The notes beneath the pieces were generated by a model. It saw only the letters and a list, made by a program, of their open reading frames with translations. It ran no database searches and was not told the DNA's origin. A stretch of DNA of 64,000 bases from an uncultured Myxococcales bacterium (GTDB lineage: Bacteria > Myxococcota > Kuafuiibacteriia > Kuafuiibacteriales > Kuafuiibacteriaceae), in contig CAYYOT010000012.1 of assembly GCA_964473255.1 (NCBI GenBank), positions 17,927 to 81,926 of the forward strand. Direction: 5' to 3'. Position numbers and translations under genes: made by a program. This document shows positions 6,971 to 14,958 of this stretch, in pieces (position 1 is the stretch's first letter; every line of letters begins with the position of its first letter).

Positions 6971-8029
6971 GTGCCGAAAATCCGGGCGTACGCGACTCGT
7001 CATGAGGTTTCGCACGTGAAGCTCGCCCGCTCACTGGTACGCGACGCTGCGGGCCTCGCGCTCTATCGAAGCGGTCTGACCCGCCCGCTTCGGCGGTTGC
7101 GGCGTCGACTGACCGTCGTGACGTTTCATCGGGTCCTCCCCGCCGAGCAGCTTCGACGATACCCCCTTCGGGGTCTGGCGATGGAGCCCAAGGATTTTCG
7201 GTGGTTCGTCCAGTACTTCCGCCGGCACTTCGATTGCCGGACGCTCGCCGACGCCCACCAGGCCGCGAGGGCGGACGGCGATCCGCCGCGCCCTCTTCTC
7301 GCGGTGACGTTCGACGACGGTCAGATCGACAATTTCCGGTACGCGCGACCCATTCTGGACGCGTGCGGCGTTCCCGCGACCTTCTTCGTTCCGGCCGATG
7401 CCGCGCGCGGAGGGGACCCGCTGTGGCACGACCGCCTCGCCTTCGGACTTCAGCGTCTTCGGGACCGCAGCGCCCGCGAATTCGCCGAGCAATGCCGGGC
7501 TCGGGCCCAGGAGGTCGGTTCGGTGAGCGAGATGGTCGAGGCGGCGAAATCACTCGGTCCCGAGACCCGGCGGGCTTGGATCGCAGAACTCGAAGCCCAG
7601 GGCGGAACCGCCGTTCCCACTTGGGACGGCTTCATGGGCGGCGCCGAGCTCCGAACGCTGGCCGGCAGCGGGCACGAGGTGGGCTCCCACGGCGCGAGCC
7701 ACGAGCTCCTGACCGATGTGGCTCCGGACCGACTCGCGGAGGAAACCGGGGGCTCCCGGTCGGCGCTGGAGGAGCTCGTACAGGAGGCGGTGACTGCGTT
7801 CTGCTACCCGAACGGGACCCACGACCCGACCGTCCGGGCTTCGGTGAAAGCGGCGGGCTACGCTCGAGCGGTCACGACCGAATGGGGGAGCAACGACCGC
7901 ATCGACGACCCGCTCCGCCTCCGCCGATGCGACATGGCCGACGCAAACACGCGAAGGACGACCGGCGGCTTATCGGAGTCCCGTTTGGCGTGGCGGCTCT
8001 CGGGCTGGCATCCGGGACTCTCGGCGTGA
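6971..8029 (+). CDS. polysaccharide deacetylase (NodB homology domain)
   Basis: VTFDDGQIDN, ATFFV and CYPNG motifs typical of the NodB/PgdA family. Confidence 0.75.
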   Translation: MPKIRAYATRHEVSHVKLARSLVRDAAGLALYRSGLTRPLRRLRRRLTVVTFHRVLPAEQLRRYPLRGLAMEPKDFRWFVQYFRRHFDCRTLADAHQAARADGDPPRPLLAVTFDDGQIDNFRYARPILDACGVPATFFVPADAARGGDPLWHDRLAFGLQRLRDRSAREFAEQCRARAQEVGSVSEMVEAAKSLGPETRRAWIAELEAQGGTAVPTWDGFMGGAELRTLAGSGHEVGSHGASHELLTDVAPDRLAEETGGSRSALEELVQEAVTAFCYPNGTHDPTVRASVKAAGYARAVTTEWGSNDRIDDPLRLRRCDMADANTRRTTGGLSESRLAWRLSGWHPGLSA

Positions 8030-8129
8030 TGTCGATCAAGGCATTGAACCTGAAATTCAGAGAAAACTACACCTTCCAAAAATGGACGTAATCCAGCAGG
8101 ATATGTCACAAGTCCTGGTTGGGGTCGCC

Positions 8130-8375
8130 ATGCAGCATATTCGAAAGTTCGTCTTCACCGCGACGCTCGTCGCCGTCTTCTTCGGTCTCGCTCCGGGCGT
8201 CCCGATGGGCGAAGCCGAAGCCGGCTGGCTCAAAGACCTGATCCATAGGATTCGGGCGAGCCGCCAGGCCCGACAGGCCGCTCCCGAGCTCGATCCGGGC
8301 ACGGCGGGGCAAGCCATGGTGGTGCTGGCCGGCGGGGCCTATCTGATCGCTGGCCGTCGTCGTAAGAACGTCTGA
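8130..8375 (+). CDS. exosortase target mini-protein with VPEID-like C-terminal sorting signal (APELD motif, TM helix, RRRK tail)
   Basis: Signal peptide MQHIRKFVFTATLVAVFFGLAPGVPMGEAEA. C-terminus APELDPGTAGQAMVVLAGGAYLIAGRRRKNV has the PEP-CTERM-like tripartite architecture. The ORF track starts at 8082, but a GGGG RBS precedes the ATG at 8130. Confidence 0.6.
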   Translation: MQHIRKFVFTATLVAVFFGLAPGVPMGEAEAGWLKDLIHRIRASRQARQAAPELDPGTAGQAMVVLAGGAYLIAGRRRKNV

Positions 8376-8455: not shown

Positions 8456-9991
8456 GTGTGGGCCGGCGTTCTCCTGCTGGAGTACCTGACGGTATCGTTC
8501 CTTTTCGATGCCCAGCCCCTCCGCGACGCGGCGCACGGCTGGTTTGGATACACCGGCGCGCTCGGCCCAGCCCTGGTCGCCGTCGGGGCCGGAGCTCTGG
8601 TCGTCGGCGCCGGCCCGGACCGTCGCGGGTTGGCCCTGCCCCGTGCGCCGCGGCGTCAGGCTCTGATCGCGGCGATGTGTCAGGTCTCCGCTTTCGCGAT
8701 CCTCGTCGCGGCAACCGCCGCCGTCGTCGCCGACATGACCGGGCCGGTCCTCATCGTGTGGCTCGGGGCGCTCTTGGCCGTGCTGGGCGCGACGTTTGCG
8801 GCGGTCGTCGATCTCCGCACCGGAACCGCATTCGATGGGCAGCTCGCCCGGACCGTCGGCCTCGCCGCCGCCGTCGGCATCTCCGCCTACGTCGCCGGGC
8901 AGGCGGCAACCCAGCTATGGGAGTTCCTCGCCGCCATCTCGCTGCGAGGCGCGGCGCTGTTGCTCCTACCCTTCGGTGATCTTCGGGTCGTCATACCGGA
9001 GGAGCGCCTCCTGGGCCTCGGCAACTATCTGGTGGAAGTCACGTCGGTCTGCTCCGGCGTCGAGGGTATCGGGCTCATCGTGGTCCTCGTCGGCGCCGAC
9101 CTCTGGCTCCATCGGCGACGCATCCCGCGCGCCAAGGCGTTTGTCGTGCTCGGTCTCGCCGTCGTATTCGTGCTCTTCGCCAACGTGGTGCGCATCGCCC
9201 TCTTGGTCTTCGTCGGGGCGGCCGTCTCGCCCGGGATCGCGCAGGGCGGATTTCATTCCAAGGCGGGATGGGTCCTTTACTCGCTGGTGGCCTTGGGCTT
9301 CGTCGCCGTGAACCATCGCCGACTCTATAGCCCCGAGGTCCGACCCGAGCCGTCCTCCTCGCCCGCCGCCCCGTACCTGGTTCCGGTCGTGGTCGTCGCC
9401 GCAGCCAACCTGGTGTCCAGCCTGTTCACCGTCGACTTTCCCAGCAGCTATCCGCTCACCGCGCTCGCCGGAGGAGTCGCCATCGTCTGGGCTTACAAGC
9501 ACTGGCCGGAGACCCTCCGCGCTCCGAACTGGTCATGGGCTTTCGCGGTCGGGCTCGTTGCCTACGCGCTCTGGCTCTTCCTCCTCCCCGAGCCTGAACT
9601 GGCGCGTACGCAGGCTCGAGTGGACAGCATGTGGGCGGGAGGCCCTTGGTTTTGGGCGCCCTGGATCTTCGCTCGGATCGCCGGATCCGTGCTCGTGGCT
9701 CCCGTGGTCGAAGAACTGGCTTTCCGTGGCTTCCTCCTCCGCTGGGTCGCAGATGCGGACTTCAGCTCGGTGCCCTACGACCGCTTCGTTCCGGCCGGCA
9801 TCCTCGTTTCGTCGGTTGCGTTCGGGCTCCTTCACTCGGCGGCCCTCGCCGGCGTCGCCGTGGGCATCCTGTACGCAGCCGCGCAGCTGGTCAGTGGACG
9901 ACTCGAGACTGCAGTCGTCGCTCATGCGGTGACGAACGCCTGTCTGGTCGTGCACGTGTTGGCCGGCGGAGCCTGGTGGCTCTGGCTGTGA
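8456..9991 (+). CDS. exosortase fused to CPBP/CAAX-type intramembrane protease (XrtE-like, VPEID-CTERM system)
   Basis: Polytopic N-terminal half carries the exosortase Cys (VTSVCSGVEGIG) and Arg (NVVRIALL). The C-terminal half carries the CPBP motifs EELAFRG, FGLLH and HAVTN. Confidence 0.7.
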   Translation: MWAGVLLLEYLTVSFLFDAQPLRDAAHGWFGYTGALGPALVAVGAGALVVGAGPDRRGLALPRAPRRQALIAAMCQVSAFAILVAATAAVVADMTGPVLIVWLGALLAVLGATFAAVVDLRTGTAFDGQLARTVGLAAAVGISAYVAGQAATQLWEFLAAISLRGAALLLLPFGDLRVVIPEERLLGLGNYLVEVTSVCSGVEGIGLIVVLVGADLWLHRRRIPRAKAFVVLGLAVVFVLFANVVRIALLVFVGAAVSPGIAQGGFHSKAGWVLYSLVALGFVAVNHRRLYSPEVRPEPSSSPAAPYLVPVVVVAAANLVSSLFTVDFPSSYPLTALAGGVAIVWAYKHWPETLRAPNWSWAFAVGLVAYALWLFLLPEPELARTQARVDSMWAGGPWFWAPWIFARIAGSVLVAPVVEELAFRGFLLRWVADADFSSVPYDRFVPAGILVSSVAFGLLHSAALAGVAVGILYAAAQLVSGRLETAVVAHAVTNACLVVHVLAGGAWWLWL

Positions 9992-9998
9992 GCTCGTC

Positions 9999-10787
9999 TC
10001 AGAAGATACAAAAAGCCTCGGCCGGTCCGCAGCACACCTCCCGGTCCTCGTCGCTCGCGTTGATGCACTGAGACCCTTGAATCCGGCAGAGCGGCTGCTG
10101 GACGATATCGCACACCGCGCAGTTGCAGGGCACGACCACCAAGGGGTCACAGGCCCGTCGAGCCGTCGTACAGCACGCCGAATCCGGACCGTCGGCGCAC
10201 TCCTGGGCGTCGAGCTGGCATGCACCCACCCGGTCCACGGCGCCGCACCGCTCTTCGCACGCGCAGGGATCGGGCTCGGCCCGAAGGCAGGCCAGCGAGG
10301 CCAACAGCACGCGTCGAGTACAGGTGAGATCGTTGCACTGGCGGTCCGCCTGGCAATCGGCAGCATCGGCCGCTAGCTCTTGGCAGCGTGGGTTGTCCCC
10401 GGTGAAGTCGCTGCAGTCCTGCCTGCAGTTTTCGAGCTCGCCCTCTTCCAGCTCTTCGCACTCCACGCGGATTTCGCAGGCTTCCTCGCACACCTCGACC
10501 ACGGTGGGTGGTGGAGAGGCATCGGCAACCATCGCGTCGCGACGAGTCTGGGCATCGGGAAAGGAAGTGGCATCGGGACGACCCGCATCCACACCCCGGG
10601 CGTCGGGTCGATCGATCGACGCATCGGGTGTCGCGCGGGCGTCGGAGCTCTCGGCGTCGACTCGAGCGGCATCGGTGCGGCCAGCGCCGCCGTCGTCCGA
10701 GTCGCTGCAGGCCGACGCGACCAGGGCCAGAGTGACGAGAGGGAAAAGTGCGCGAGTCACGGACCGGTGATACCACGCAAGCTTCAC
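9999..10787 (-). CDS. cysteine-rich secreted lipoprotein
   Basis: Lipobox LVASAC. D/A/P-rich linker followed by more than 30 Cys in CxxC/CxC patterns. Confidence 0.45.
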   Translation of the reverse strand: MKLAWYHRSVTRALFPLVTLALVASACSDSDDGGAGRTDAARVDAESSDARATPDASIDRPDARGVDAGRPDATSFPDAQTRRDAMVADASPPPTVVEVCEEACEIRVECEELEEGELENCRQDCSDFTGDNPRCQELAADAADCQADRQCNDLTCTRRVLLASLACLRAEPDPCACEERCGAVDRVGACQLDAQECADGPDSACCTTARRACDPLVVVPCNCAVCDIVQQPLCRIQGSQCINASDEDREVCCGPAEAFCIF

Positions 10788-10793
10788 CGGGCC

Positions 10794-13700
10794 TCAAAAG
10801 AAGTTCCGTGAGACCGCACCGGGGGTGGGACCGGCCAGCGGCTCGAAGCGATCGACGATGACGTTGCTGACCTGGTGCCGTCGCTCGAGCTTACCGACCG
10901 CAGCCAGCAGCACGGCATCCCGGACCCACGAACGGTGCCGTTCCCACACGTGGGAAAAGACCACCAGGTTCATCTGTCCGTCTTCATCCTCGAGCGTCAT
11001 GAATATGACGCCTTTCGCCGTTCCCGGTCGCTGGCGGACGGTCACCAAGCCCCCCACCTTCACCCGGCGACCGGGAGTCGTCGCTTCGACTTGGCGGTAG
11101 CCCATGATCCCCTGGCGCTTCAGGTCTTCACGAAGAAGCGCAACCGGATGAACCCGGGTCGACAGTCCGAGCGATCGAAAGTCTGCCTGCATCTCCTCCA
11201 CCGGGTCCATCGTCGACAGCCCACGCGCTGGAAGAGGGGTGGATACGGTTCGTAGGAGCGGAGCGCCGCGATCGAAACCCAACACCTGCCAAAGCGCCTG
11301 TCGGCGGTCGCAGCCCAGACCGGAAAACGCATCGGCGGCGGCGAGCTGGACCGCGGCATCCAGCGGCACATCGGCTCGGTGAAGAACGTCGGTGACGCTC
11401 TCGAACGGTCTCTCGGTTCGCGCCAGGACGATCCGCTTCGCCACCGGCTCGCTGAGCTGACCGACTTGGTCGAGTCCGATGCGGACCGCCGGTTGGACGG
11501 GCCGACCGAAGCTCTTTCGCCCCTCGACATGGTCGGCCCAAGGCGTGTGACGTTTTTCCCGATGGGGACTCTCGTCGTACCAGGGCGGGATACGCTCGTC
11601 GTCCGGCACTTCGAGGGTCGTCTCCGCTTCGCTGTTCACGACGCAGGGGGGGCGCACCTCGAGGCCGTGCCGCCGACCGTCTTCGATCAGAGTGTGCACG
11701 CCGTAGAAGCCCATCGGCTGGCTATTGATGAGCGCGGCGAGAAATGCCGCCGGGTGATAGCGCTTCAGATAGCAGGAGGCGTACCCGATCAGGGCGAAGG
11801 ATGCCGCGTGAGACTCGGGAAAGCCGTACCCGCCAAAGCCCTGGATCATCTTGAAGATTCGCTCGGCAAAGTCCCTCTCCATACCGTTTTCGAGCATTCC
11901 GTCGATGATGCGGTCGCGCATCTTGTCGATGTGGAGCTGTGAGTTCCAGCCGATCGCTCGCCGAAGATGATCGGCTTCGCCTGGAGAAAAGCCCGCCACC
12001 TGTACGGCCACCTTCATGACCTGCTCTTGGAACAGCGGAAGTCCGTAAGTTCGACCCAGGATCTTCTCCAGGTCCGGGTGGGGATAATCGACGGGCTCGG
12101 TGCCTTCCCGTCGCCGCAGGTATGGATGCACCATGTCACCCTGGATCGGCCCGGGCCGAATGATGGCCACCGCTACCACGAGATCATAGAACGTTCGCGG
12201 GCGCAGCCGCGGGAGGGTCTGCATCTGGGCGCGGGACTCGACCTGAAACGTCCCCACGGTGTCGGCGTCGCCGATCATTTCGTACACCGCCGGCACTTCC
12301 GCGGGTACGGTCGCCAGCGATAGGTCTCGTCCTTCCGTCTGGCGAATCGCGTCGAACGCCCGGCGCACGACGGAAAGCATTCCCAAGGCGAGAAGGTCGA
12401 CCTTGACCAGCCCCAGCGTCTCCACGTCGCGCTTGTCCCAAGCGATGACCGTCCGATGCTCCATCGTTGCGTTCTCGACGGGGAGCAGCTCGACGATCGG
12501 ATCCTTGGTGATGACGAATCCACCCGAGTGTAGCCCGAGATGACGAGGAAAGCCGCGAAGCTCTTCGGCCCAGCGAACCAGAAGACGCACGCGGGCATCG
12601 CGAGGGTCCATCCCGGCTTGGCGAACTTCCTCGTCGGTCATGTCCGGTGCCGACCAGTGGCCACGGCCGTCCGTGATACGGTCGATCTGGTCTTCGCCCA
12701 GCCCCAAGACCTTGCCCACTTCGCGGTACGCGAGCTTGCTCCGATAGCAGATGACGTTGGCGACCATCGCCGCCCGGTCCCGGCCATACTTTTCGAACAC
12801 GTACTGCATGACTTCCTCTCGGCGCTGATGCTCGAAGTCGACGTCGATGTCCGGCGGCTCGCCTCGCTCCGCGGAGATGAAGCGCTCGAAGAGCAGGTTC
12901 ATGCGCACGGGATCGATGGCCGTGATCCCCAAGCAAAAGCAGACGATGGAGTTGGCGGCCGAACCGCGGCCCTGGCAAAGAATCCCGCGCGAACGCGCGA
13001 AGCGCACGACATCCCAAACGGTGAGAAAATAGCCCTCGAAGCCGAGGTCTTCGATCAGCTTCATCTCGTGGTCGATCTGGTCCTCGACCTCACGCGGAAT
13101 GCCCCGAGGATAGCGCTCCTGCGCGCCCTTTCGGACCAGCTTCCACAGATAGCCGAGCCCGGTTTCGCCTTCGGGCAGCACTTCCAGGGTGAAGTCGTGG
13201 ACCAGCTCGTCCAGGCGGAATCGGCAGGCATCGGCGAGCTCGACCGTCCGGGCAACGGCAGCGGCGTGCTCGGGGATCAGCCGGTACATCTCTTCGGCGC
13301 TGCGAAGGTAACCCATGCCGTGGGGCAACAGGTGTCGTCCCGCTTCGTCGAGCCGTTTCCCCACCCGGACGCCCGTCAAGATATCCTGCAGCGGCTTTCG
13401 CTCCCGCGCATGCATGACCACGCCGCCGGTGGCGACCACGGGGATTCCAAAACGCTGGGCGGCCGCCGTCACCTCCGCGATGCGCTCCGGGTCGTCGGGC
13501 CGAAACGCCCGCTCCACCGAGAGATGAAGCCGGTCGCCGAACAGGTCGCGTTCGCGGGCGAGCGAAAGATGGTCCGGCGGACCGACGTGGATGGCGAAGA
13601 GCCCGGCGGCCTGCGCGGCGACGTCGTCGAACGAGAGCTCGAACCCGCCTTTGCCGGTCTTCAGGCGGGCTTCACTCAAGAGCCGACAGAGTCGGCCGTA

Positions 13701-13979
13701 GCTGGCGCGATCCGAGGGCAGAAGAACCAGCCCCGGACCGGTCGTGGAAACACCGGTCAGGCGGACTTCGGTGCCGACCAGGATCTGAACGCCGTGCTCT
13801 TTACCCGCGTTGAAAGCACGGACCACGCCGTACAGGCCGGCATGGTCGGTGATGGCCAGCCGGTCGTGGCCGAGGCGCGCCGCGGTGGCGACCAGCTCTT
13901 CCGGATGGGACGCCCCCCGCAGGAACGAGAAGTTCGACGCGCACCGCAGCTCGACGTATCCGGCCACCGGAGAGAACAA
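10794..13979 (-). CDS. dnaE2: error-prone DNA polymerase DnaE2 (ImuC)
   Basis: 1061 aa. N-terminal YVELRCASNFSFLRGAS PHP signature typical of DnaE2. Pol III alpha core. TTG start in the track. Confidence 0.85.
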   Translation of the reverse strand: MFSPVAGYVELRCASNFSFLRGASHPEELVATAARLGHDRLAITDHAGLYGVVRAFNAGKEHGVQILVGTEVRLTGVSTTGPGLVLLPSDRASYGRLCRLLSEARLKTGKGGFELSFDDVAAQAAGLFAIHVGPPDHLSLARERDLFGDRLHLSVERAFRPDDPERIAEVTAAAQRFGIPVVATGGVVMHARERKPLQDILTGVRVGKRLDEAGRHLLPHGMGYLRSAEEMYRLIPEHAAAVARTVELADACRFRLDELVHDFTLEVLPEGETGLGYLWKLVRKGAQERYPRGIPREVEDQIDHEMKLIEDLGFEGYFLTVWDVVRFARSRGILCQGRGSAANSIVCFCLGITAIDPVRMNLLFERFISAERGEPPDIDVDFEHQRREEVMQYVFEKYGRDRAAMVANVICYRSKLAYREVGKVLGLGEDQIDRITDGRGHWSAPDMTDEEVRQAGMDPRDARVRLLVRWAEELRGFPRHLGLHSGGFVITKDPIVELLPVENATMEHRTVIAWDKRDVETLGLVKVDLLALGMLSVVRRAFDAIRQTEGRDLSLATVPAEVPAVYEMIGDADTVGTFQVESRAQMQTLPRLRPRTFYDLVVAVAIIRPGPIQGDMVHPYLRRREGTEPVDYPHPDLEKILGRTYGLPLFQEQVMKVAVQVAGFSPGEADHLRRAIGWNSQLHIDKMRDRIIDGMLENGMERDFAERIFKMIQGFGGYGFPESHAASFALIGYASCYLKRYHPAAFLAALINSQPMGFYGVHTLIEDGRRHGLEVRPPCVVNSEAETTLEVPDDERIPPWYDESPHREKRHTPWADHVEGRKSFGRPVQPAVRIGLDQVGQLSEPVAKRIVLARTERPFESVTDVLHRADVPLDAAVQLAAADAFSGLGCDRRQALWQVLGFDRGAPLLRTVSTPLPARGLSTMDPVEEMQADFRSLGLSTRVHPVALLREDLKRQGIMGYRQVEATTPGRRVKVGGLVTVRQRPGTAKGVIFMTLEDEDGQMNLVVFSHVWERHRSWVRDAVLLAAVGKLERRHQVSNVIVDRFEPLAGPTPGAVSRNFF

Positions 13980-14137: not shown

Positions 14138-14902
14138 TCAGCATCCGGCTTGAGTGTCGGGGACCTCGGTCGTCACGAATGCTTCGCGCACGAAGGTCGT
14201 GCCGCCGGGGACCGGGACCTCGACGCGATATCGGTCGACCTGGTCGGCGATGTCGGAGGGACGCGTGGTCTGACCGACGCGGGCGCGATTGATGATCAGC
14301 TGGACCGCCCCACCGTCGATCGTCACTTCGCCCGGCACGCCGAAGTCGAAAGCGAAGACCAGTGAATCGGGGAGGGCGAGCTCGGTCCCGGCGACATCGA
14401 GCATGACCAGCCGCGTGCCGAGCTCCAGCTGCCGCTGCTCCTCTGAAGTGAGGTTCGTGACCTCGGGCGTCACCAGACGAAACCCAGACCAAATGTGGCC
14501 GATGCCGTCCTCCTGGGAACCACACTCCCAGAGCAAAAGGTCACCTTGGCGGACGTCGGATTGCTCCTTCAGACGCTGCGGGTCGGGATTCATGGCCGAT
14601 GTGATCGTGAGCTCCGGGTCACCGCTCGGCGGGTCGCCCGGCGTGTACCGTCCGGCGTCTTCCACCATGGCGTCACCGGACGCGTCGGCGCCCCCGTCAT
14701 CCCTCCCAGCGTCGGGCTCGCCCGCGTCGATAAGACCCGCCTCGGCCCGGGCGTCGGGACGGTCGACCGCCGCGTCAGGGCGTACGTCCGGACCCGACGT
14801 GGCGTCATCCGACGCGCGTGCGTCGGCCGCTCCCGACGAGCCATCGTCGTCGGAGCACGCGAACAGCGCGAGGATGAATACCGCAGGTAAGCACCGTTGC
14901 AT
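14138..14902 (-). CDS. secreted lipoprotein with D/A/P-rich linker
   Basis: Lipobox LALFAC after the second Met. Low-complexity PDA-rich N-terminal region. Confidence 0.4.
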   Translation of the reverse strand: MQRCLPAVFILALFACSDDDGSSGAADARASDDATSGPDVRPDAAVDRPDARAEAGLIDAGEPDAGRDDGGADASGDAMVEDAGRYTPGDPPSGDPELTITSAMNPDPQRLKEQSDVRQGDLLLWECGSQEDGIGHIWSGFRLVTPEVTNLTSEEQRQLELGTRLVMLDVAGTELALPDSLVFAFDFGVPGEVTIDGGAVQLIINRARVGQTTRPSDIADQVDRYRVEVPVPGGTTFVREAFVTTEVPDTQAGC

Positions 14903-14958
14903 GGAGGACCGAGGATGGGCGAAACCGGCGAAGCGGGCAAGCATCGTGCATTTTACCG

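Follow-up and report, generated by a model that had tools for sequence, protein, structure and literature searches.

INTRODUCTION

A sorting enzyme that is dedicated to a single client encoded next to it is a recognized pattern in C-terminal protein sorting (bioRxiv 10.1101/2023.06.07.544157; PMC11980579). In the ArtA/PGF-CTERM system the archaeosortase removes the C-terminal helix of its substrates and a prenyl-derived lipid is attached, and rhombosortase substrates, which carry GlyGly-CTERM, acquire an attached anchoring moiety, according to summaries that include PMC11980579. A fusion of exosortase-like and CAAX-protease-like domains was noted in 2006 and taken, by the Rosetta-stone argument, as a hint that the two domains have clients in common (PMC1569441). 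Here, we describe a gene for such a fused enzyme, an exosortase E/CPBP protein, and a very small gene that precedes it in a 64-kb stretch of contig CAYYOT010000012.1 from an uncultured Myxococcales bacterium; the whole stretch of 64,000 nucleotides (nt) is referred to here as the window, and all positions are given on its forward strand unless stated otherwise. On balance, we think that the 81-amino-acid (aa) product of positions 8130 to 8375 is probably the dedicated substrate of the exosortase E/CPBP enzyme encoded 80 nt downstream, that the two make up a self-contained cassette, and that the product is processed to an anchored peptide. This assessment applies mostly to a cognate substrate being processed to a peptide and much less to the peptide being anchored.

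Exosortase E was reportedly first described in a 2012 paper on archaeosortases and exosortases. In the literature that we searched, there was no mention of VPEID-CTERM, and the term "XrtE" led to unrelated papers only. To our knowledge, ArtA and rhombosortase are the only relatives or analogues that have been studied experimentally, and nothing comparable has been shown for a bacterial exosortase; we know of none, XrtA included, with a defined cleavage site, acceptor, or product.

The gene pair in the window

The enzyme gene (positions 8456 to 9991) encodes a 511-aa membrane protein, which we identified as an exosortase E fused to a CPBP protease domain. The protein reaches 154.6 bits against TIGR04162 (exosortase E/protease, VPEID-CTERM system), narrowly above the cut-off of 150 (E = 4.6e-45), and the match spans model positions 92 to 515 of 516. 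The exosortase/archaeosortase signature TIGR04178 is found at residues 193 to 285 (50 bits versus a cut-off of 23) and the PEP-CTERM-system CPBP model TIGR03008 at residues 303 to 510 (110 bits), and Pfam reports Exosortase_EpsH (PF09721, 44.6 bits) and Rce1-like (PF02517, 54.7 bits). We aligned the enzyme with 65 homologues. The exosortase triad, which lies between positions 9050 and 9256, consists of Cys199, Arg246, and His267 (codons at 9050 to 9052, 9191 to 9193, and 9254 to 9256), conserved in 59, 61, and 62 of the 66 aligned sequences, respectively. The residues of the CPBP glutamic protease (EExxxR, FxxxH, and HxxxN), located between positions 9710 and 9937, are conserved in 56 to 59 of the 66; in the window enzyme they correspond to Glu419-Glu420...Arg424 (9710 to 9727), Phe456...His460 (His codon at 9833 to 9835), and His490...Asn494 (9923 to 9937). 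Among the exceptions are clearly mis-framed sequences, e.g., L067, and probably others. Both predicted catalytic sites are intact at the sequence level. Database relatives with 34 to 45% identity consistently bear the name exosortase E in JGI and NCBI annotations ("exosortase E/protease, VPEID-CTERM system"); a search by sequence returned no related solved structure. All the testable defining features of exosortase E were found in the predicted product, which makes the gene a member of this family and supports the original prediction that the small neighboring ORF encodes an exosortase substrate.

The small gene preceding it was first noted as an open reading frame (ORF) of 97 aa at positions 8082 to 8375. 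The ORF is real and coding-like, with a G+C content (GC) of 0.72/0.45-0.50/0.74-0.76 at the three codon positions that resembles that of the flanking genes. The 97-aa form is the longest one and corresponds to the public call (P0001). An in-frame stop codon lies at 7845 to 7847 and no start codon occurs from there to 8082, so the protein has at most 97 aa. This answers one doubt raised at the outset, namely, that the true start might be far upstream and the product a conventional protein. The spacer at positions 8030 to 8129 is AT rich (GC of 0.46 versus 0.657 for the whole window), its in-frame third-position GC is 0.21, and the N termini of the homologues align with the ATG at 8130. Given this composition and these aligned starts, the product probably has 81 aa rather than 97, and the extension MDVIQQDMSQVLVGVA (8082 to 8129) is probably noncoding. 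Within the region from 6 to 11.5 kb of the window, the spacer is the sharpest dip in GC (0.46 versus ∼0.66), immediately 5' of the mini-gene. The mini-gene may therefore own a separate promoter in this AT-rich stretch; a search for a σ70 consensus promoter upstream of it found none. A composition scan for horizontal transfer gave no signal except for the spacer itself, and no terminator or attenuator was found between the mini-gene and the enzyme gene, where the intergenic RNA fold has a z score of −1.6.

In a six-frame survey of the window, no other ORF combined a PE motif with a truly hydrophobic helix behind it and a basic C terminus. The precursor starts with a predicted Sec signal peptide, MQHIRKFVFTATLVAVFFGLAPGVPMGEAEA (positions 8130 to 8222), composed of a basic n-region, a 15-residue hydrophobic core, and an A-x-A box that is conserved among the mini-substrates; the predicted cut after AEA was placed by the (−3,−1) rule together with the conservation of this box in the homologue alignment. 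The predicted cargo, GWLKDLIHRIRASRQARQA (8223 to 8279), follows. At the C terminus, the motif APELD (8280 to 8294), the presumed site of exosortase recognition and cleavage, abuts a 20-aa transmembrane helix with a Gly-Gly pair in its middle, PGTAGQAMVVLAGGAYLIAG (8295 to 8354), as indicated by hydrophobicity and AlphaFold2. The protein ends with a basic tail, RRRKNV, predicted to be cytoplasmic, and the stop codon (8355 to 8375), so that the tripartite architecture of a sorting domain is present. A set of 116 related sorting domains was selected for xPExx, and the invariance of Pro-Glu in this set thus carries no weight; the flanking consensus is [AV]-P-E-[LIF]-[DA]. The full consensus of the domain reads [AV]PE[LIF][DA][PG]x[GA]AxAALAL[LI]xGGAA[IVL][VLI]x[SG]RRRR, with the Gly-Gly pair in 78 to 81% and the Arg cluster in 82 to 95% of the 116 domains. 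No other part of the precursor is as well conserved as this domain. An AlphaFold2 model of the 81-aa form (database-protein alignment of 37 sequences; mean predicted local distance difference test [pLDDT] of 75.6) places helices at residues 2 to 19, 32 to 45, and 56 to 80, i.e., in the order helix, loop, helix, loop, and transmembrane helix, the last one with a pLDDT of ∼90.

A word-seeded protein search with the mini-protein returned only itself. An exhaustive phmmer search against 1.84 billion representative proteins (E ≤ 0.001) yielded 10 matches including the query, all of 82 to 99 aa; the closest homologue (P0020) is 57% identical, and PE[LI]D occurs in all nine non-query matches, which were not selected for the motif. 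A profile search retrieved 80 proteins, 76 of them with at most 113 aa and four with 129 to 184 aa, none of which has a functional name; they are unnamed or called "hypothetical", "uncharacterized (TIGR03382 family)", or "LPXTG anchor". The window mini-protein itself has no curated-family match in NCBIfam or Pfam and no name in public sources. Two familiar identities were considered and set aside. The protein is not a PEP-CTERM protein (TIGR02595), as its motif is P-E-L rather than P-E-P, the window protein has no match to the model, and the relatives reach E = 0.074 at best. Nor is it an LPXTG sortase substrate, since the LPXTG motif is missing and NF058582 gives 17.3 bits (cut-off, 27), over the helix/Arg part only. 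Three relatives from metagenome-assembled genomes (MAGs) labeled Deltaproteobacteria and Verrucomicrobiae (P0017, P0019, and P0098) are publicly named "LPXTG cell wall anchor domain-containing protein", which appears to be a mis-annotation due to the common transmembrane helix and Arg tail.

Recurrence of the gene pair

A scan with one genome per species identified 68 loci that encode relatives of the enzyme, mostly from MAGs of Myxococcota or Polyangia, with some from Planctomycetota and Alphaproteobacteria and one from Gemmatimonadota. When mini-genes were sought in these loci by a six-frame scan, ORFs of the same layout were found in 43 of the 68, 44 in total: 40 directly upstream of the enzyme gene and three just downstream of it, with the last one being a second copy 3 kb upstream. 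Apparent gaps of 250 to 700 nt go back to tblastn matches to the enzyme that begin at query residue ∼100 to 180. Together with the window protein, this makes 45 mini-substrates with a median total length of 82 aa. The profile search is biased toward small proteins, so it is this synteny scan that provides unbiased evidence on size. In a reciprocal test, three of four profile-found mini-proteins on long contigs had an exosortase E gene within 2 kb, and two mini-proteins directly adjoin enzymes that score 242 and 221 bits against TIGR04162. Cultured planctomycetes carry the pair as well: Tundrisphaera sp. TA3 encodes a 66-aa client with the cargo GDPPFIPNA 127 nt upstream of an annotated exosortase E, and the same gene pair is present in Aquisphaera insulae.

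Some loci depart from one mini-gene per enzyme. In L071, two mini-genes lie in tandem (L071:1279-1509 and L071:1918-2181; 76 and 87 aa, both with CKPVPELS), and two paralogous mini-substrates are encoded 3 kb apart in L020 (L020:620-919 and L020:3572-3886). No exosortase E gene occurs within 2.5 kb of a 98-aa APELD mini-protein on a 727-kb contig (P0078; L073:2501-2797), and the gene downstream of it encodes a 472-aa protein (L073:3277-4695) with no NCBIfam match and no Pfam hit on record.

This recurrence leaves little room for the view that the ORF arose by chance, or that it was mis-called and is part of a larger surface protein of the conventional type. The ORF is indeed short, matches no curated family, and has no public name, but its codon-position GC is coding-like, the upstream in-frame stop without an earlier start codon leaves no space for a larger protein, a 57% identical homologue and eight further small homologues exist, and synteny with exosortase E holds in 43 of 68 loci. 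We therefore regard this explanation as very improbable.

The cargo of the mini-substrates

The predicted cargo of the window protein has 19 aa between AEA and APELD, with a monoisotopic mass of 2,274.29 Da. Its charged residues are four Arg, one Lys, one His, and one Asp, which amounts to a net charge of +4 and a calculated isoelectric point of 12. The short, cationic mature part that the original prediction had proposed is thus supported. The same prediction held that this part forms an amphipathic helix, and here the evidence is divided. In its favor, AlphaFold2 predicts a helix at residues 32 to 45 of the 81-aa form (blocks with a pLDDT of 79 and 67), and on a helical wheel the cargo residues Trp2, Leu3, Leu6, Ile7, and Ile10 span an arc of 140 degrees. 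The closest relatives maintain hydrophobic residues at positions 2, 3, 6, 7, and 10: P0020, P0025, P0023, and L015 display the pattern [GS]-W-L-x-x-[LVF]-[ILMW]-x-[RK]-[ILQ] right after the A-x-A box, the pattern recurs in P0021 except that Ile replaces Trp, and 8 to 14 polar, basic, or Gly-rich residues then lead to [AV]PE[LI]D. Against it, the best 11-residue hydrophobic moment (0.57) is reached in 49.5% of cases when these residues are shuffled; for P0020 and L015, the shuffle test is borderline (4 to 6%). An amphipathic cargo helix is therefore plausible and evolutionarily supported but statistically undemonstrated.

Across the family of mini-substrates, the predicted cargo is peptide-sized throughout. 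The distance from the predicted signal peptidase site to xPExx ranges from 3 to 57 aa among the 45 proteins, with a median of 24, and is at most 30 aa in 32 of them. Large, variable mature regions in orthologues would have spoken against a peptide; instead, this range and the total lengths of the nine other phmmer matches (82 to 99 aa) agree with one. Taken as a whole, what the exosortase E system processes appears to be peptides and not surface proteins. The cargo is mostly cationic (a positive net charge in 33 of the 45, a negative one in 6, and none in 6), of low complexity, and hypervariable. Compared with the proteins of the window, Arg (13.9 versus 9.1%), Lys (5.8 versus 1.5%), His (5.5 versus 2.0%), and Trp (4.4 versus 1.6%) are enriched, as are Gly and Ser, while Leu, Val, and Glu are depleted. 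Repeats are found in several cargos, such as Trp/Ser runs of the SWSWSW type (L007, L014, L026, and L031), (PR)n (L038), and GHGHGH or GNGNGN (L062, P0045, and P0053), which hints at differing physicochemical roles, e.g., at the membrane interface or in metal binding, within one processing system. Other members contain GDKGDK repeats or KPFWYCPP. In a few members the cargo is near absent: DER in Aquisphaera, ALAISV in L003, GVSST, five residues or fewer in P0095 and P0098, and AAMQVAA in P0099. Conservation is seen within sub-clades, namely, the GWLxxLIxRI group, RGWQKARQ..HVRVH..GFG (L010, L017, and L058), and GSWWRRARR (L035 and L045).

Such variability raises the question of whether the mini-protein carries a cargo at all. 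It might instead regulate or prime the enzyme as a pseudo-substrate, or belong to exosortase E as a small subunit; in either case, its functional part would be the conserved sorting domain and transmembrane helix, and the variable segment would serve only as a spacer. This would fit a sorting domain that is far more conserved than a low-complexity, hypervariable cargo, the near absence of the cargo in the DER, ALAISV, P0095, P0098, and P0099 members, and the strict one-gene-to-one-gene pairing. However, the cargo is recognizably conserved within the three sub-clades named above, and the A-x-A box is conserved, which points to a free N terminus. The content of Arg, Lys, His, and Trp at 1.5 to 4 times the background, with the depletion of Leu, Val, and Glu, argues for some selection on the cargo itself. 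In view of these observations, we find a pseudo-substrate or subunit unlikely.

Genes around the pair

None of the 18 other window genes within 24 kb has homologues in the 68 loci, and all-against-all clustering of the locus ORFs, wrong-frame artifacts aside, did not reveal a further family in more than ∼10 loci. The pair alone is conserved across phyla, and we accordingly view the unit as a two-gene cassette. The polysaccharide deacetylase gene directly upstream in the window (positions 6971 to 8029), a candidate for supplying an amine acceptor for transpeptidation, was rejected as a conserved feature, as it is absent from all 68 loci.

Across these loci we also found no conserved export, immunity, or receptor gene near the pair, which bears on the proposal that the product is a released bioactive peptide, similar to a bacteriocin or a signal, with the CPBP domain acting in processing or self-immunity. 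The cationic cargo with its predicted helix and the rapid divergence of cargos between lineages are compatible with this proposal; moreover, CPBP genes downstream of bacteriocin structural genes have been suggested to confer self-immunity (bioRxiv 10.1101/2023.06.07.544157), and the PEP-CTERM protein ZepA was found in an exoproteome (PMC10957091). Nevertheless, many cargos could not form a pore-forming helix, being Gly/His or Gly/Asp/Lys repeats, only 3 to 9 residues long, or net acidic, the hydrophobic moment of the window cargo is no higher than that of its shuffles, and neither a transporter nor a receptor/kinase gene is conserved nearby. A released peptide would still require a route across the outer membrane. 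We accordingly consider a released bioactive peptide quite unlikely. The antimicrobial or signal-like role put forward by the original prediction is not supported as a general reading either: with Gly/His-rich, Trp/Ser-rich, or Pro/Arg cargos, 6 of 45 acidic, and several near absent, the diversity across the family argues against one shared antimicrobial or signaling role.

The remaining surroundings in the window include a radical SAM/GNAT protein, a methyltransferase, a uracil-DNA glycosylase family protein, a kinase, an S41 peptidase, ApaG, and a DnaE2-like polymerase. Convergent to the exosortase E gene and 8 nt downstream of it, positions 9999 to 10787 (reverse strand) encode a 262-aa Cys-rich protein with an N-terminal signal-like sequence, for which there was no Pfam or NCBIfam match and no homologue in the related loci. 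The DnaE2-like DNA polymerase III α subunit (10794 to 13979, reverse strand), with PHP, NTPase, finger, HhH, and OB domains, lies beside a 268-aa ORF without a family match (14138 to 14944, reverse strand); these two genes might form a mutagenesis cassette.

A proposed model for processing

By analogy with the better-studied sorting systems, we propose that the precursor would be exported by the Sec pathway and would lose its signal peptide after AEA, while its C-terminal helix would tether it in the inner membrane with the Arg cluster on the cytoplasmic side. The exosortase domain, through Cys199, Arg246, and His267, would then cut at APELD, and the new C terminus would most likely be transferred not to water but to a lipid or glycan acceptor in the envelope. 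The fused CPBP domain may perform a second cut, either disposing of the stub of helix and RRRK or trimming the product. The expected end product is a peptide of ∼19 to 24 residues (2.3 to 2.8 kDa), with an amphipathic helix of 10 to 14 residues and a short basic linker, held by its C terminus at the envelope surface. We infer the anchoring step from ArtA/PGF-CTERM, rhombosortase/GlyGly-CTERM, and the exosortase model, and we favor a lipid-anchored peptide among the options. The cationic, low-complexity cargo fits a tether at the envelope surface, or one that modifies charge, better than a specific ligand.

Several points weigh against this model. In the literature that we searched, there were no experiments on any exosortase E system. 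If the N-terminal helix were to stay on uncleaved as an anchor, processing would yield a fragment of ∼50 aa that is anchored at its N terminus. The window protein does not match TIGR04161 (VPEID-CTERM; cut-off, 33 bits) even at E ≤ 10; among its relatives, 10 of 43 do, all below the cut-off, with 31.4 bits at best. In addition, ∼13 of the 68 loci have no adjacent mini-gene, and eight have nearby xPEL[DS]-CTERM substrates of ∼200 to 290 aa, which shows that exosortase E is not always limited to one tiny client.

The eight loci with large substrates are L011, L032, L034, L036, L042, L050, L052, and L054 (e.g., L052:801-1430 and L042:824-1441), and several of these substrates have a common N-terminal "YDFTA..." domain. 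A protein of ∼700 aa from one family is encoded between substrate and enzyme in six of them and likewise in L053 and L065; in L011, its gene is on the other strand and downstream. Six other loci (L001, L004, L009, L018, L060, and L063) lack an adjacent mini-substrate and have a common upstream ORF, by eye apparently a short-chain dehydrogenase; their client, if any, must lie elsewhere.

A broader interpretation of the proposed processing is that exosortase E cassettes might be gene-encoded systems for peptide conjugation and not for protein sorting, in which the cargo of 3 to 57 residues (in the window, a cationic helix plus linker of 19 residues) would be moved by the exosortase Cys-transpeptidase onto a membrane lipid or envelope glycan. 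The resulting peptidyl-lipid or peptidyl-glycan, ribosomally encoded in its peptide part, would tune the charge or chemistry of the surface, with the CPBP domain completing maturation. This is a possibility that we put forward tentatively, as one that may well turn out otherwise. If true, it would add a new route of envelope modification by ribosomal peptides. The main value of the pair lies in a minimal natural substrate for learning how exosortases act, and in a correction of annotation. A natural client of ∼2.3 to 2.8 kDa that is encoded beside its own enzyme is a near-ideal substrate for mass spectrometry in a two-gene reconstitution. On the annotation side, the curated VPEID-CTERM models miss the VPELD/APELD clients described here from Myxococcota, Planctomycetota, and several further phyla, which score too low and at present go by "hypothetical" or, wrongly, by LPXTG cell-wall anchor.

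Comparison with known systems

The family to which the window pair is closest is exosortase E/VPEID-CTERM (TIGR04162, TIGR04161, and PF27847). The window enzyme has the same fusion of exosortase and CPBP domains and scores above the cut-off, and its client resembles the known ones in the tripartite layout of the sorting domain, with P-E-aliphatic-D at the core. A small adjacent client is shared as well, given that the canonical enzymes from other phyla (221 to 242 bits) adjoin proteins of 54 and 73 aa; the 54-aa protein, next to the 221-bit enzyme, is a canonical VPEID-CTERM protein that matches PF27847. As canonical clients are equally small, the peptide-sized cargo is a property of the known family and not a peculiarity of the window. 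One difference lies in the motif, which is APELD in the window and VPELD in most Myxococcota relatives. Between APELD and VPEID, Pro, Glu, and Asp are identical and the changes from Val to Ala and from Ile to Leu are conservative, and both variants adjoin exosortase E genes.

XrtA/PEP-CTERM (TIGR03109, TIGR02595, and TIGR03008) shares a homologous Cys-Arg-His exosortase domain and the CPBP domain. However, XrtA has many, mostly large clients, is associated with exopolysaccharide loci, and works alongside a separate CPBP protein, whereas here we find one peptide-sized client, a fused enzyme, no conserved exopolysaccharide genes, and PEL instead of PEP. For the His-rich cargos, we looked at the zinc exoprotein ZepA, which has a PEP-CTERM (PMC10957091), as a possible analogue but discarded it, since a folded protein in which more than 150 residues align is not comparable. 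ArtA and rhombosortase couple helix removal to a lipid-containing anchor, which is the basis for the anchoring proposed here; in contrast, their clients are large folded proteins (S-layer glycoprotein and proteases), and rhombosortase is an unrelated serine protease.

In concept, the nearest analogue is the MrtJ/JDVT-CTERM cassette (Haft 2023; bioRxiv 10.1101/2023.06.07.544157), in which one sorting enzyme with a CPBP glutamic protease domain is paired with one adjacent client and which occurs sporadically across lineages. It differs in that the JDVT motif has an invariant Cys and the enzyme consists of CPBP only, while the window motif is without Cys and an exosortase domain is fused in front. 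Judging by these comparisons, the window pair is a divergent, unannotated member of a known but uncharacterized two-gene system. The system itself is known from purely computational work.

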